A DNA stretch of 64,000 bases, from contig JALSLC010000006.1 in assembly GCA_026988525.1 (NCBI GenBank), forward strand, positions 123 to 64,122, in the 5' to 3' direction. The DNA comes from Archaeoglobaceae archaeon (GTDB taxonomy: Archaea; Halobacteriota; Archaeoglobi; Archaeoglobales; Archaeoglobaceae). Within the stretch, counting starts at the first letter, position 1. Each line of letters begins with the position of its first letter. Shown here one piece after another: positions 55,741 through 59,520 of the stretch. A program made the position numbers and the translations under genes. Under the pieces are notes generated by a model. The model saw only the letters and a list, made by a program, of their open reading frames with translations, ran no database searches and was not told the DNA's origin.

Positions 55741-56001
55741 TCACAATACATCATTGTTCAAAATTGATTTAACGTAATTAAATATTTTAGTTGCAAGCTC
55801 CTCGCTATCGCACTCAATCACTAAACCCAGATTTTCATTTATCTTAAACCTGAGAGAAGGTAAAATTTCTGAACTTACACTACCAGCAACATAGGACCAC
55901 CTTTTACCAATTATTTCAGCAAACCAAACACTAACTCCAAACTCTTTCCAAATTTTTTCGGCCAATTCTTCGAGTTTAGAAGTATATATCTCTCTCACCA
56001 T
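55741..56001 (-). CDS. 86-aa hypothetical protein overlapping the 3' end of hydG
   Basis: ORF overlaps the hydG stop by 26 nt, same strand. No recognisable motif ('MVREIYTSKLEELAEKIWKEFGVSVWFAEIIGKRW...'). Confidence 0.4.
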   Translation of the reverse strand: MVREIYTSKLEELAEKIWKEFGVSVWFAEIIGKRWSYVAGSVSSEILPSLRFKINENLGLVIECDSEELATKIFNYVKSILNNDVL

Positions 56002-57484
56002 CTTCTATCCTACTCAAGTACTCCATCAACTTTTCAAATGTTCTTTCAGGAACTAATTTTTTAACTTCTTCAATTTCTCTACTCAAAATTTTTGTACCTA
56101 TTTCTCTCGTTTCATCACTTGCAAAATCCTCCAAGTATTCTTTGTAAGTTAGAATTGCATTGAGCTTGCAAAATATCTTTTCTTTACCAGTTTTAAGTAA
56201 TTTCATTATTCTAATACCTGTTCTACCACATCTATACCCGGCTGTACAAAATGAAACTATATATCCCATTTCTGCTAACCATCTGACTCCTTCATCTAAC
56301 TCTCTTGTATCCCCAAGAATAAATTGCTGTTTTTCAGCTTCCTGTTCGTTGTAACTTTCTCTATATGACCCAATACCAATTTTTGAACCAAAATCAGTTT
56401 GGGTTACTCCTAAGTGAATTACTCTCCTTCTTATATGCTCTGGTTCTCTTGCAGTCAGTATCATACCTGTGTAAGGTATAGCTATTCTAACTGTAGCTAT
56501 AAATTTCATAAAATCCTCATCAGATACCTTATAAGCAGAATTTTGAACAAAAGGTGTGTTGGCTGCAGGCCTCAGCCTAGGAAAACTTACTGTATGTGGG
56601 CCTATTCCAAATTTTTCTTCTAACTCTAAAGCGTGAGATAACAACGCCAAAACTTCAAACCTCCAATCGAACAACCCAAGTAAAACACCTATACCTACAT
56701 CATCAACTCCCGCCTCTAAGGCCCTATGCATACAGTATAATCTCCAAAAGTAGTTACCTTTTATTGTATCAGGTGGATGAACTTCTGAATAAGTTTTCAT
56801 ATGGTATGTCTCTTGAAACACCTGAAATGTGCCAATACCAACATCTCTTAAAATTTCAAGTTCTTCCACAGTCATTGGAGCAGCATTAACGTTCACTCTC
56901 CTAATTTCCCCTCTACCACCTCTCTTTCCTTTAACTCTAACACTGTATATTGCTTTAAGAGTGTTGGCTATATAGTTGACATCGGAAAGTGGATGTTCCC
57001 CATACGATGTTATAAGTCTTTTATGCCCCATCTTTGCAAGTATCTCCGCTTCTTTCTTTACTTCATCCAAAGTTAGCCTTCTCCTAATTTCTACACTATT
57101 CTCCCTTCTAAAAGCACAATAAAGACAGTTATTAACACAGTAGTTAGAGCAATACAAGGGTGCAAAAGTAACTATTCTGTTGTCATATACTTGCTTTTTT
57201 ACAATACTTGCTGTATGAAAAATTTCCTTCCAAAGATCTTCATTTTTAACGTTCAATATTGCAGCACAATCCTCCAAGGATATGCAATCCTTGTTTTGTA
57301 AAACCTCATCCATTATACTTCTAATTTTACTTGGACTTGGATCTCTATTTTCTTTTAAACATTTCCATATTTTCTTTTCATCAATAAATGATTTTTTATT
57401 ATCCATGTATTTAGAAAAACCATCGTCTCCTTTTAACCGATCTTCCATCCACTTTTTAGCTACATTGATACTTTCAACCCACAT
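55976..57484 (-). CDS. hydG: HydG-like radical-SAM [FeFe]-hydrogenase maturase (tyrosine lyase family)
   Basis: Radical-SAM 'CVNNCLYC', 'FQVFQETYH', 'DDVGIGVLLGLFDWRFE', 'GPHTVSFPRLRPA', C-terminal cluster domain 'SFCTAGYRCGRTG...FCKLNAILT', terminal 'RDIYF'. 502 aa. Divergent from hydA. Confidence 0.85.
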   Translation of the reverse strand: MWVESINVAKKWMEDRLKGDDGFSKYMDNKKSFIDEKKIWKCLKENRDPSPSKIRSIMDEVLQNKDCISLEDCAAILNVKNEDLWKEIFHTASIVKKQVYDNRIVTFAPLYCSNYCVNNCLYCAFRRENSVEIRRRLTLDEVKKEAEILAKMGHKRLITSYGEHPLSDVNYIANTLKAIYSVRVKGKRGGRGEIRRVNVNAAPMTVEELEILRDVGIGTFQVFQETYHMKTYSEVHPPDTIKGNYFWRLYCMHRALEAGVDDVGIGVLLGLFDWRFEVLALLSHALELEEKFGIGPHTVSFPRLRPAANTPFVQNSAYKVSDEDFMKFIATVRIAIPYTGMILTAREPEHIRRRVIHLGVTQTDFGSKIGIGSYRESYNEQEAEKQQFILGDTRELDEGVRWLAEMGYIVSFCTAGYRCGRTGIRIMKLLKTGKEKIFCKLNAILTYKEYLEDFASDETREIGTKILSREIEEVKKLVPERTFEKLMEYLSRIEDGERDIYF

Positions 57485-57624
57485 CGTTGTAAATTGACGG
57501 TCACGTAATATTAAATTTACTCAAATTTTTAATACATTATAAAACAAATTTCGTAAAATAGATATACTTAAGATCGACTGTAGGTTAAAAAGTGAATAAA
57601 AAATATGTATATTGGGGGGTTAAA

Positions 57625-59520
57625 ATGGCACAAGTAACAATAGATGATAAAATTATTGAAGTGTCTGAAGATATTACCGTAGAGGAGTTAATGAAAAAAG
57701 AGGGCATTGAATTCTGGAGGCCTTTTGAAGTGCCTCAAATGGAGTTTATACATAACAAAGATTGTCCTCTTATAAACATTGTTGAAGTAGATGGGGCTAT
57801 AGCTACTCCGAAAAAAATCAGACAAATGAAAGTAAAAGATGGAATGGTTATCAAAACGAAATCAGAAAAAATAAAGAAAACCTTAGAAGAAAGACTAAAA
57901 AAACTTGAAGAAAGAAAGGAATGCCATTTAATTAGACTTCTTCAAGAGTTTACTGCAATTGAAGCCGAAAATGCAGGAATAGTATCTCTTGAAGAGAGAA
58001 AGAACTGGAAATTTGAAGGATGGAAATCAGAACCAGCAATAGTGTACGATCCCGAATTATGTATAAGATGTGGAAATTGCGTTGAAACTTGTAAAAGTGT
58101 TCAAAGTGTTGAAGCTATAAAAATGGATGAAGAAAAAGGAGTAATACTTGTAGATGAGGCAAGATGTACAAGGTGTGGACAGTGCATTCATGCTTGCCCA
58201 ATGGGTTTAGAAAATGAAAAAATAAAAATATTCAAAGAATTTAATGGTTGTAAGCTTTGCCCGTATTCAAGACCATACAGCGCTATAAGAGAGATAGACC
58301 ATACAAAGATTGTTTGGGAAGCGTTAAAAGATAAAGAAAAATTTGTAGTTGTACAGTTTGCTCCATCAATGAGAGTTAGTATTGGAGAAGAGTTTGGATT
58401 GAAACCAGGTGAGATAGTTGTTGGAAAAATTTATGCTGCTTTAAGAAGGCTGGGATTTGACAGAGTATGGGATACAAACTTTGCTGCCGATGAAACAATA
58501 ATGGAGGAAGGAACTGAACTAATATGCCGTTTTATAAAAGCTGGAATAATAAACAAAGATAATGTAAAGGGTATTAAAATTACAGATGAAATGTTAAAGA
58601 ATATCTCAGATAAATTACCTCAATTTACATCATGCAGCCCGGGATGGGTTAAGTTCTGCGAAACGTTTTATCCGGAATTAATAGACCATATATCTTCTGC
58701 AAAATCACCACAACAGATGTTTGGTGCTACTGCAAAAACCTATGCAGCGTTAAAACTTGGAATTGATCCAGAAAAAGTTTTTGTAGTATCAATAATGCCG
58801 TGTACAGCTAAAAAATTTGAAAGAGAAAGAGAAGAAATGTGTTCAGCTTGGAAATGGTTGAAGGAAAATGGATATATTTCTGAGTATACACCACCCTTCC
58901 CAGATGTAGATGTTGTATTAACTACAAGAGAGTTTGCTAAATTGTTGAAAATGGCAGGTATAGACTTAGCCAAAATGCCTGATGAAGAACCAGATTCATT
59001 ACTTGGGAAATATACTGGAGCAGCAGCGATATTTGGAAGGACGGGTGGTGTAATGGAAGCTGCTTTGAGAACTGCATACGAGTTGATAACTGGCAAAAAG
59101 TTAGAAAAATTAGAGTGGGAAGAATTGGAAACCTTAGACGGTATAAAATCTGCAACAATAAAACTTAATGGTAAGGAAATAAAAGTTGCTGTTGCTCATG
59201 GGCTAAATAATGCAAGAAAAGTTTGTGAATCTGTTAAAAACGGTGGAGAGATGGCAAATTACCACTTCATAGAGTTTATGGCGTGTCCCGGTGGATGCAT
59301 TGGAGGAGGTGGACAACCAGAACCAACCAACTTAGAAAGAATAAAAGCAAGAATCCATGCTTTAAACGTTCACGATAGAAATTTACCGCTCAGAAAATCT
59401 CACGAAAATCCAGAAATACTACAAATGTACGAAGACTTCTTTGAACATCCTATTAGCGAAAAATCTCATGAATTACTACACACAAAGTATGTAGATCGAT
59501 CTATACACCTAAAACAATAA
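57625..59520 (+). CDS. hydA: [FeFe]-hydrogenase catalytic subunit (HydA, CpI-like multidomain architecture)
   Basis: H-cluster motifs L1 'TSCSPGW' (variant), L2 'MPCTAKKFE', L3 'EFMACPGGCIGGGGQP'. Also 'SSAKSPQQMFG', two ferredoxin motifs 'CIRCGNCVETC' and 'CTRCGQCIHACP', and the C-terminal 'RKSHENPEILQMYEDFF...HELLHTKY'. The ATG at 57625 is preceded by GGGGGG. Confidence 0.9.
   Translation: MAQVTIDDKIIEVSEDITVEELMKKEGIEFWRPFEVPQMEFIHNKDCPLINIVEVDGAIATPKKIRQMKVKDGMVIKTKSEKIKKTLEERLKKLEERKECHLIRLLQEFTAIEAENAGIVSLEERKNWKFEGWKSEPAIVYDPELCIRCGNCVETCKSVQSVEAIKMDEEKGVILVDEARCTRCGQCIHACPMGLENEKIKIFKEFNGCKLCPYSRPYSAIREIDHTKIVWEALKDKEKFVVVQFAPSMRVSIGEEFGLKPGEIVVGKIYAALRRLGFDRVWDTNFAADETIMEEGTELICRFIKAGIINKDNVKGIKITDEMLKNISDKLPQFTSCSPGWVKFCETFYPELIDHISSAKSPQQMFGATAKTYAALKLGIDPEKVFVVSIMPCTAKKFEREREEMCSAWKWLKENGYISEYTPPFPDVDVVLTTREFAKLLKMAGIDLAKMPDEEPDSLLGKYTGAAAIFGRTGGVMEAALRTAYELITGKKLEKLEWEELETLDGIKSATIKLNGKEIKVAVAHGLNNARKVCESVKNGGEMANYHFIEFMACPGGCIGGGGQPEPTNLERIKARIHALNVHDRNLPLRKSHENPEILQMYEDFFEHPISEKSHELLHTKYVDRSIHLKQ

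Follow-up and report, generated by a model that had tools for sequence, protein, structure and literature searches.

The question raised by this locus is whether an [FeFe] hydrogenase of bacterial type can be a long-established part of an archaeal genome that also carries dsrAB and, if so, to which partner the enzyme delivers its electrons. The locus lies on contig JALSLC010000006.1 of an Archaeoglobaceae archaeon (GenBank assembly GCA_026988525.1), of which 64,000 nucleotides (positions 123 to 64,122) were analysed; this whole stretch is called the window. It harbors the hydrogenase gene hydA (57625..59520, plus strand) and, on the opposite strand, the maturase gene hydG (55976..57484), whose end is overlapped by a small gene on the same strand that we call X (55741..56001, minus strand). 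A preliminary description of the same DNA had proposed a bacterial-type pair of hydG and hydA within an archaeal dsrAB genome; this core claim passed every test that was run, and the pair proved to be no assembly artefact. Our own reading, to which we assign a probability of about 0.6, is that HydA is a functional cytoplasmic hydrogenase, that it was acquired once from thermophilic sulfate-reducing bacteria and that it would pass its electrons to an MvhD-type domain.

The hydA product and its domains

The gene encodes 631 amino acids when read from the ATG at 57625. This form is used in two public gene calls and a GGGGGG run precedes the ATG; an in-frame GTG at 57592 would yield a protein of 642 amino acids. 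In profile searches the product exceeded the cut-off of the NCBIfam model TIGR02512 ('[FeFe] hydrogenase, group A') with 460 against 406 bits, by which the identification as HydA was upheld. The Pfam family Fe_hyd_lg_C (PF02906) matched along its entire model (245 positions, E=1.2e-90), together with several 4Fe-4S dicluster families. The cut-offs of the more specific 'A6' and clostridial NCBIfam models were not reached; the highest scoring NCBIfam model, NF040763 ('NADH-dependent [FeFe] hydrogenase, group A6'), gave 595 bits with a cut-off of 765. Judged from its sequence, the hydA product is a full-length group A [FeFe] hydrogenase.

Among solved structures, HydA1 of Thermoanaerobacter kivui (PDB 8a6t) was the best sequence match (416 bits), followed by HydA1 of Acetobacterium woodii (PDB 7q4v/7q4w, 369 bits), and the fold agrees. 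An AlphaFold2 model (predicted local distance difference test score, pLDDT, 86.7; predicted template modelling score 0.88) retrieved the T. kivui and A. woodii proteins, the Clostridium pasteurianum enzyme CpI and the Desulfovibrio desulfuricans enzyme as best fold matches in Foldseek; for T. kivui HydA1, CpI and the D. desulfuricans enzyme, the template modelling (TM) scores were 0.64-0.85. The HydA1 subunits of the HydABC complexes (group A3/'A6') show the same domain order of beta-grasp domain, linker, two [4Fe-4S] clusters, H-domain and small-subunit-like tail. In contrast to them, the window protein lacks ligands for the two clusters at the N-terminus, [2Fe-2S] and His-[4Fe-4S], by which HydA is wired to HydB/C, and contains three extra insertions. 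Furthermore, neither hydB (NuoF-like) nor hydC (NuoE-like) flanks hydA in the window, as would be the case in a HydABC locus.

Individual residues were mapped by alignment to CpI, an M3-type, ferredoxin-dependent enzyme. The CpI sequence that was used had the expected length and the expected residue at each landmark, and it agreed with PDB residues 293-329. The preliminary description had regarded HydA as CpI-type and collinear with that enzyme. The collinearity from end to end and the overall fold were affirmed (Foldseek E ~1e-44 to 1e-45; TM 0.64-0.71 to CpI and T. kivui HydA1), but the type was not, as the two proteins are only 34% identical, the N-terminal cluster ligands are lost, three clade-specific insertions are present, the L1 motif differs, and the closest relatives belong to another phylogenetic neighbourhood than CpI.

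The N-terminal beta-grasp fold with its helical linker (approximately aa 1-135; 57625..58029, plus strand) is homologous to the CpI module holding the clusters FS2 ([2Fe-2S]) and FS4C (His-[4Fe-4S]), of whose ligands only one out of four is left in each case. The fold itself is kept (pLDDT 82-95, with a HoxU-like match of aa 12-206 in the numbering of the 642-aa form), but to judge by its residues the domain is cluster-less. The F-domain with two ferredoxin-type [4Fe-4S] motifs (58060..58197, plus strand) retained all eight cysteines (C146/149/152/156 and C181/184/187/191). Only these two F-clusters of the M3 set are complete and, because the N-terminal ligands are lost, they alone would serve as electron wire. 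The clade-specific insertions comprise aa 192-216, 306-330 and 405-425. The first of them (58198..58272, plus strand), modelled with lower confidence (pLDDT 64-73), contains a nearly invariant C209-x-x-C212 within GCKLCPYSRP.

In the H-domain, all of the following on the plus strand, the L1 motif T335-S-C337-S338-P-G-W341 (58627..58647) contains C337, the equivalent of the proton relay cysteine C299 of CpI, and S338 in the position of CpI C300. The L2 motif M391-P-C393-T-A-K396-K-F-E (58795..58821) corresponds to CpI M353, C355 and K358, and the L3 motif E550-F-M552-A-C554-P-G-G-C558-I-G-G-G-G-Q-P (59272..59319) to CpI M497, C499 and C503. A fused small-subunit-like tail (Fe_hyd_SSU, PF02256; E=4e-22) follows at 59335..59499. 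The strings MPCTAKKFE, EFMACPGGCIGGGGQP and RKSHENP...HELLHTKY, on which the original identification had relied, were all found in HydA. The proton pathway is intact (E295, E298, R302, C337 and S357, equivalent to CpI E279, E282, R286, C299 and S319), and the lining of the 2Fe site is conserved in the alignment (equivalents of CpI K358, M353, M497, P231, Q325 and F417). With the exception of Ser338, all residues holding the H-cluster are retained; C393, C554 and C558 provide the remaining three cysteine ligands, the bridging cysteine among them.

HydA thus reads TSCSPGW instead of TSCCPxW: the relay cysteine is present and the first cysteine ligand of [4Fe-4S]H is replaced by serine. The same TSCSP was found in 98 of the best 120 HydA homologues and, in a PDB search with the L1 peptide, as TSCSPGW in HydA1 of the electron-bifurcating HydABC complex of A. 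woodii. Since this protein, which we take to be an active enzyme, has the same serine, Ser338 should tolerate catalysis. Serine at this position has been reported for about 20% of putative hydrogenases (Kertess et al., PMC5855289). Ser338 is thus a known natural variant that gives no reason to doubt catalysis or group A membership. The idea that it represents an uncharacterised and possibly inactivating novelty was dropped in view of the A. woodii motif and the literature value. Likewise, the CxxC of the first insertion was considered as a substitute for the lost cysteine ligand and rejected, as the idea found no support in co-variation: CxxC occurs with TSCSP (80) as well as with TSCCP (8).

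It is very improbable that HydA is a sensory or otherwise non-catalytic homologue (group C/D HydS, or Nar1/NARF). Such a role might be suggested by the non-canonical L1 motif, as an engineered C115S exchange left HydA1 of Chlamydomonas reinhardtii inactive and unable to bind the cluster (PMC5855289). However, the TSCSP motif is shared with a solved bifurcating hydrogenase, L2, L3 and every member of the proton-transfer chain are kept, and neither a PAS nor any other signalling domain was detected in HydA by Pfam. Moreover, HydA passed the group A cut-off while its score with the NCBIfam group B model was far under that model's own cut-off, and genes for dedicated maturation are co-located.

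Residence in the archaeal genome

That the segment is bacterial DNA which was mis-assembled or mis-binned onto an archaeal contig might be supposed, because the close named homologues outside metagenome-assembled genomes (MAGs) are all bacterial. This explanation is hardly credible. The exact HydA protein was recovered in the same gene order from the ENA contig ERZ27262649 and the Logan contig SRR7968110, and the same region is present on the NCBI MAG GCA_054025435.1. The concern about a chimeric contig was thereby addressed, as all three public assemblies have the same junctions and gene order, and an Archaeoglobaceae MAG syntenic with the window has that order as well; synteny extends to Archaeoglobaceae MAGs of different samples. 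Host-like codon usage and a monophyletic archaeal HydA clade, both described below, argue in the same direction.

Relatives were searched in one genome per GTDB species (r232 representatives, among which the species of the window is not included). Five HydA relatives with identities of 88-75% were obtained (loci L001 to L005), four of them titled Archaeoglobaceae. The locus L001 (MAG JALSQI01) is syntenic with the window for about 17 kb, from approximately 47 kb to 64 kb. In L002 and L003, hydA lies beside pdaD, an adjacency found in four genomes, but hydG and X have been lost from the segment beside hydA (L002 8235-8462, L003 9755-10001). L004 and L005 have retained the divergent arrangement of X-hydG and hydA at a different genomic site. 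In L003, the DNA beyond hydA is a dsr-containing block which in the window is located 15-25 kb upstream; this gene order indicates a rearrangement, one breakpoint of which coincides with the 3′-end of hydA.

The G+C content at third codon positions (GC3) of hydA follows that of the host from 0.24 to 0.64 over six loci. The codon distances of hydA (0.072) and hydG (0.089) to the other genes of the window are among the lowest of 30 genes. With a G+C content of 0.35 for hydA and hydG compared to 0.34, host-like codons and no tRNA within the 64-kb window, the borders showed no compositional break, as had been described before. When hydA and hydG were compared to L001-L005, synonymous sites were saturated, the proportion of nonsynonymous differences (pN) was 0.07-0.17 and its ratio to that of synonymous differences (pN/pS) 0.10-0.18; hydG alone gave a pN/pS of 0.12-0.18. 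Saturated synonymous sites together with low pN/pS indicate that both genes have been in the genome for a long time and subject to purifying selection.

In a neighbour-joining tree, the seven Archaeoglobaceae HydA proteins formed one clade in 100 of 100 bootstraps. The nearest sequences outside of it were P0004, P0005, P0006 (Desulfovulcanus), P0010 (Desulfonauticus) and those of Thermodesulfatator. Taken together, these comparisons indicate that hydA is an old, vertically inherited acquisition common to at least five Archaeoglobaceae species of GTDB and not a recent island. The simplest account is that the gene was acquired once, long ago, and then passed on vertically with local rearrangements. 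A vehicle of transfer did not emerge, as the plasmid collection searched contained only HydA relatives of at most 46% identity.

Archaeal [FeFe] hydrogenases of the groups A1, A3, B, E, F and G have been described from nine phyla by Greening et al. 2024 (PMC11216029). According to the same authors, archaeal group A enzymes derive from bacteria by at least six acquisitions, mostly without full maturase sets. The window resembles these cases by a group A enzyme of bacterial origin and an incomplete maturase set, but its HydA belongs neither to the minimal A1 enzymes nor to the A3 enzymes of HydABC type. Archaeoglobi and Halobacteriota are not mentioned in the main text of PMC11216029.

Relatives of HydA and its proposed electron acceptor

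The closest relatives of the archaeal proteins belong to a clade of vent sulfate reducers with 62-71% full-length identity, among them Thermodesulfatator indicus (64%), T. atlanticus (62%), Desulfovulcanus ferrireducens (65%), Desulfonauticus submarinus (66%) and metagenomic proteins (70-71%). Clade members and the window HydA, identical by at least 60%, have in common the TSCSP motif, a degenerate, cluster-less N-terminus, the CxxC insertion and the two other insertions. The pairing of hydA with dsrAB, which the preliminary description had considered unusual, is therefore usual for this HydA clade.

This clade comprises MvhD::HydA fusions. Ten of the best 120 hits, including P0005 and P0006, carry MvhD (FlpD) fused to the N-terminus of HydA. 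In the Archaeoglobaceae locus L005, the genes are arranged as hdrA-hdrC-hdrB-mvhD-hydA, divergent from hydG-X-hydF, while in L004 hydA is preceded by an hdrB-like gene and followed by an hdrA-like fragment. Outside the Archaeoglobaceae clade, the closest relative (P0004, locus L013), which is probably bacterial, has the C-terminus of MvhD directly upstream of hydA. In L009 (1281-10322), hdrA-hdrC-hdrB-mvhD-mvhG-mvhA is followed directly by an MvhD::HydA fusion and then by hycI and rnf; on this metagenomic and probably bacterial contig, a [NiFe] and an [FeFe] hydrogenase module thus stand in tandem behind a single Hdr. An operon hydA-hdrA(MvhD)-hdrC-hdrB was also found in L014 (8001-13262), whose HydA is 60% identical and belongs to the same clade. 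The MAG is labelled Candidatus Altiarchaeales and, if the binning is right, would represent a second archaeal lineage with Hdr-linked HydA.

MvhD is known as the Hdr docking module of alternative dehydrogenases (Costa et al., cited in PMC6085437). Because of the MvhD fusions and the hdr gene contexts among the relatives, we infer for the whole clade that the ancestor of the Archaeoglobaceae HydA acted as H2-oxidising module within a complex of Hdr type. According to the reading that we prefer, an ancestor of these Archaeoglobaceae would have captured the hydA genes once from thermophilic sulfate-reducing bacteria, and the captured genes would then have been vertically inherited and fully adapted to the codon usage of the host. 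Electrons would leave HydA via the F-clusters and be received by an HdrA-like flavoprotein (Hdr-like or possibly QmoB) through its MvhD-type [2Fe-2S] domain, with HydA in the role which the [NiFe] subunits MvhAG play in Mvh-Hdr complexes. In this way, the oxidation of H2 would be coupled, probably by flavin-based bifurcation, to two reductions in sulfate respiration, one of ferredoxin and one of a disulfide-type acceptor. The MvhADG-HdrABC complex, in which the hydrogenase docks on HdrA through MvhD, served as working analogy; the catalytic subunit is here an unrelated [FeFe] enzyme and the window contains no Hdr parts. In this lineage hydA would have been relocated away from the hdr genes, and for this reason a partner would not be visible in the window.

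Several observations weigh against this assignment. None of the genes mvhD, hdrA, hdrB and hdrC was found within the 64-kb window, and unlike that of the vent clade, whose hosts are bacteria, its HydA is neither fused to MvhD nor adjacent to mvhD or hdr genes. Most members of the wider TSCSP clade, e.g., that of Thermogutta, stand alone without an Hdr neighbour, so the link to Hdr may be limited to one subclade. The closest sequence of MvhD type, at a distance of about 6 kb and just beyond the window, is the QmoB C-terminus. The tree, obtained by a distance method only, gives weak support (24% bootstrap) to the sister groups outside the archaeal clade, the C115S exchange cited above inactivated an algal enzyme, and by tblastn the window contains neither hydE nor hydF; hydE was absent from every Archaeoglobaceae locus examined.

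The gene qmoC (NF038018, 403 bits) was located at L006 16968-18275, corresponding to approximately 64592-65899 in window numbering and hence beyond the window end. On the same contig it is preceded by the part of qmoB that encodes the MvhD-like C-terminus, and both lie some 5-6 kb away from hydA. Docking of a hydrogenase on the MvhD-like domain of QmoB has been proposed by Ramos et al. (PMC3333476). As a partner of HydA, we regard this domain as a lead, not as evidence.

The serious rival is a monomeric, ferredoxin-linked hydrogenase of the A1/CpI-like kind that works on its own without an Hdr or MvhD partner. We consider this possible, though unlikely. The hydA gene of the window is monocistronic with no redox partner gene alongside, the same applies to L001-L003, where hydA stands without Hdr-type neighbours, and many bacterial clade members such as Thermogutta have no partner nearby either. 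In addition, the model matched the fold of the D. desulfuricans enzyme, and two F-clusters suffice for ferredoxin exchange, as in that enzyme and in M2-type enzymes. On the other hand, the closest bacterial relatives and the Archaeoglobaceae protein of L005 are fused to MvhD or encoded beside it, which points to an MvhD-docking ancestor. The retention of a cluster-less N-terminal domain and of three conserved insertions may moreover reflect a protein-protein interface. On these grounds the transfer of electrons to an MvhD-type domain is the reading that we retain.

The 12 bifurcating enzyme types compiled in PMC6085437 (2018) do not include a complex of HydA, MvhD and Hdr. No report of an [FeFe] hydrogenase in Archaeoglobi or of an MvhD-HydA fusion was found in the literature searched, whose incomplete coverage makes this weak evidence.

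Maturation, protein X and meaning for the family

The HydG-like maturase gene is, as stated in the preliminary description, divergent from hydA, the two ATG codons being 140 nt apart. Its product, a radical S-adenosylmethionine (SAM) H-cluster maturase of 502 amino acids, scored 461 bits with NCBIfam TIGR03955 (cut-off 312) and matched PDB 4wcx ('Biotin and thiamin synthesis associated') with 457 bits over residues 28-502. The radical-SAM motif C116-x3-C120-x2-C123 (CVNNCLYC) is encoded at 57116..57139 and the C-terminal auxiliary-cluster motif C413-x5-C419-x19-C439 (CTAGYRC...C) at 56168..56248, both on the minus strand. The spacing of the latter deviates from the Cx2Cx22C of 4wcx, which we take to be a HydG-type structure with the canonical form. 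All of the best 120 HydG hits exhibited Cx5Cx19C, including proteins named HydG by NCBI and proteins encoded next to hydE/hydF, and the spacing is by this comparison a trait of a HydG subfamily and not a defect. The proteins look like two subtypes, Cx5C and Cx2C; Thermodesulfatator and L013 have the Cx2Cx22C form of 4wcx. The bacteria whose HydA proteins come closest possess another HydG subtype than the window, and the donor of hydA may therefore not have been that of the maturase genes.

Only one of the three canonical maturase genes lies in the window, a previous statement that the tblastn search bore out. Among the relatives, hydF is next to X-hydG in L004 and L005, and L005 shares the block hydG-X-hydF-glyA with two metagenomic loci, L019 and L020. 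All loci in which hydE was seen (L008, L013 and L017-L020) are apparently bacterial, to judge by their genes for periplasmic HydAB and cytochrome b. A metagenome scan for hydF yielded three loci with 72, 73 and 48% identity to HydF; a low-GC hydF was not among them, a result that is uninformative since just two very specific peptide patterns were used.

It might be argued that HydA is intact but not matured in this lineage, and thus inactive or, containing [4Fe-4S] clusters only, of other redox function. For this would speak that pdaD occupies in the window and L001 the place which hydF takes beside X in L004/L005, that hydG and X are gone as well in L002 and L003, that hydE is missing from the Archaeoglobaceae loci, and that the scan revealed no low-GC hydF. 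Nonetheless we judge it improbable. Both hydA and hydG are under strong purifying selection (pN/pS ~0.1), all residues contacting the 2Fe subcluster are kept, and the negative scan relied on the two patterns mentioned, while the window covers only 64 kb of the genome. Furthermore, many archaea and some eukaryotes possess active [FeFe] hydrogenases without some or all of the known maturases (PMC11216029). We therefore continue to regard a functional HydA as the better interpretation.

Gene X, which encodes 86 amino acids of an unannotated family and overlaps the stop codon of hydG by 26 nt, lies at the left end of the segment treated in the preliminary description and had not been described there. 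It is downstream of hydG in the window, L001, L004 and L005 (44-60% identity), and a homologue with 38% identity follows hydG in Thermodesulfatator. A profile search of 1.84 billion representative proteins yielded a family of 199 members of 75-120 aa with the motif E-I-x-G-[KR]-R-W-S-[YF]-[IV]-A-G; X and 39 family members had no match in Pfam or NCBIfam. In every context examined, X was situated directly 3′ of hydG (L001 8148-8393, L004 7269-7526, L005 3618-3932, L008 11877-12122, L015 5001-5285, L017 238-528, L018 976-1263), typically with an overlap of 23-26 nt. It was followed by hydE (L017, L018), hydF (L004, L005, L019, L020) or unrelated genes. By virtue of the overlap, X is probably translationally coupled to hydG, and from its gene contexts it looks like an unrecognised accessory protein of HydG. 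The AlphaFold2 model of X (pLDDT 85) shows an alpha-beta4-alpha fold, and a fold search gave weak matches to Roadblock/LC7, the Rag C-terminal domain, PAS and GAF (E >= 0.04, TM 0.55-0.63); the predicted similarity to Roadblock/LC7 and PAS/GAF is suggestive only. An identity of X with the TM1266-like 'iron-only hydrogenase system regulator' (PF21699/TIGR03959) was rejected, as there was no match to the models and X is unlike the TM1266-like protein of L008, which shares a cluster with an X homologue.

Genes of one-carbon, ammonia and lipoyl metabolism recur beside the maturase genes or hydA (L005 1122-2420, L013 8540-9799, L019 6986-7885, L020 9247-9537, L008 12119-13516, L014 305-718 and 13290-17315). 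Serine hydroxymethyltransferase was found after hydF, aspartate ammonia-lyase after hydG-X in Thermodesulfatator, and GcvH, LipS1 and LplA near the hydA-hdr genes of L014. Their presence fits the reported route from serine, H-protein and ammonia-lyase to the dithiomethylamine bridge of the H-cluster.

A more far-reaching interpretation would join these elements. The TSCSP-type HydA clade might be the hydrogenase module of an undescribed bifurcating complex of the [FeFe]-HydA/MvhD/HdrABC type, or of a HydA/QmoB type, which was captured by Archaeoglobaceae and whose HydA is matured by HydG and the Roadblock-like X. In this combined form the proposal is tentative, and we would rather expect one or another part of it to fail. 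If true, a complex from bacterial sulfate reducers would have replaced [NiFe] Mvh, or would operate alongside it, in H2-driven sulfate respiration.

The intergenic region between hydG and hydA (57485..57624) is AT-rich and a putative promoter region for both genes. It contains a TATA-like AAAAAATAT box at approximately 57597-57605. A block of 36 nt at 57501-57536 (TCACGTAATATTAAATTTACTCAAATTTTTAATACA) is almost identical in L001, whereas the rest of the region has diverged; the block may be a shared promoter or the binding site of a regulator. On the other side, hydA is separated by a T/A-rich spacer of 30 nt (59521..59550) from the convergent gene of an ATP-binding cassette (ABC) substrate-binding protein, and this spacer is a probable oligo-T terminator region.

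The archaeal character of the surroundings, also claimed previously, was substantiated by Pfam and NCBIfam. Near neighbours encode PdaD, an Archaeoglobus-type GGGP synthase, DGGGP synthase and CofG/H, and further out there are genes for DsrABD, PolB, Alba, Orc1/Cdc6, RIO kinase, TIP49, Sec61-beta, LonB and Mre11/Rad50 as well as for Mer-like luciferase-family proteins and multihaem cytochromes. The window has a G+C content of 34%, compared to 38-49% in the related loci L001-L005. DsrA and DsrB (35111-37519, minus strand) share 96% identity with the L003 proteins, compared to 53-87% for neighbouring proteins. The GC3 of dsrAB is raised (0.36-0.38 compared to about 0.24), and in codon usage no genes of the window deviate more. 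This deviation could be due to very high expression and constraint, or else to a recent exchange within the family.

It was only in 2024 that archaeal [FeFe] hydrogenases were documented (PMC11216029). By the sequence comparisons presented here, the Archaeoglobaceae are another archaeal lineage with a laterally acquired group A enzyme, old enough to be a trait of the family: one ancient, selected copy of HydA is present in several of its species (seven HydA sequences, loci of five GTDB species), accompanied by HydG and sometimes by HydF. The gene contexts of the relatives point to a coupling of hydrogenase and Hdr, which the 2018 catalogue with its 12 bifurcating types does not list, and also to X as an unannotated partner protein of HydG. 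An [FeFe] enzyme is now placed in a cultivable family of archaeal sulfate reducers, where it is open to physiology and genetics.

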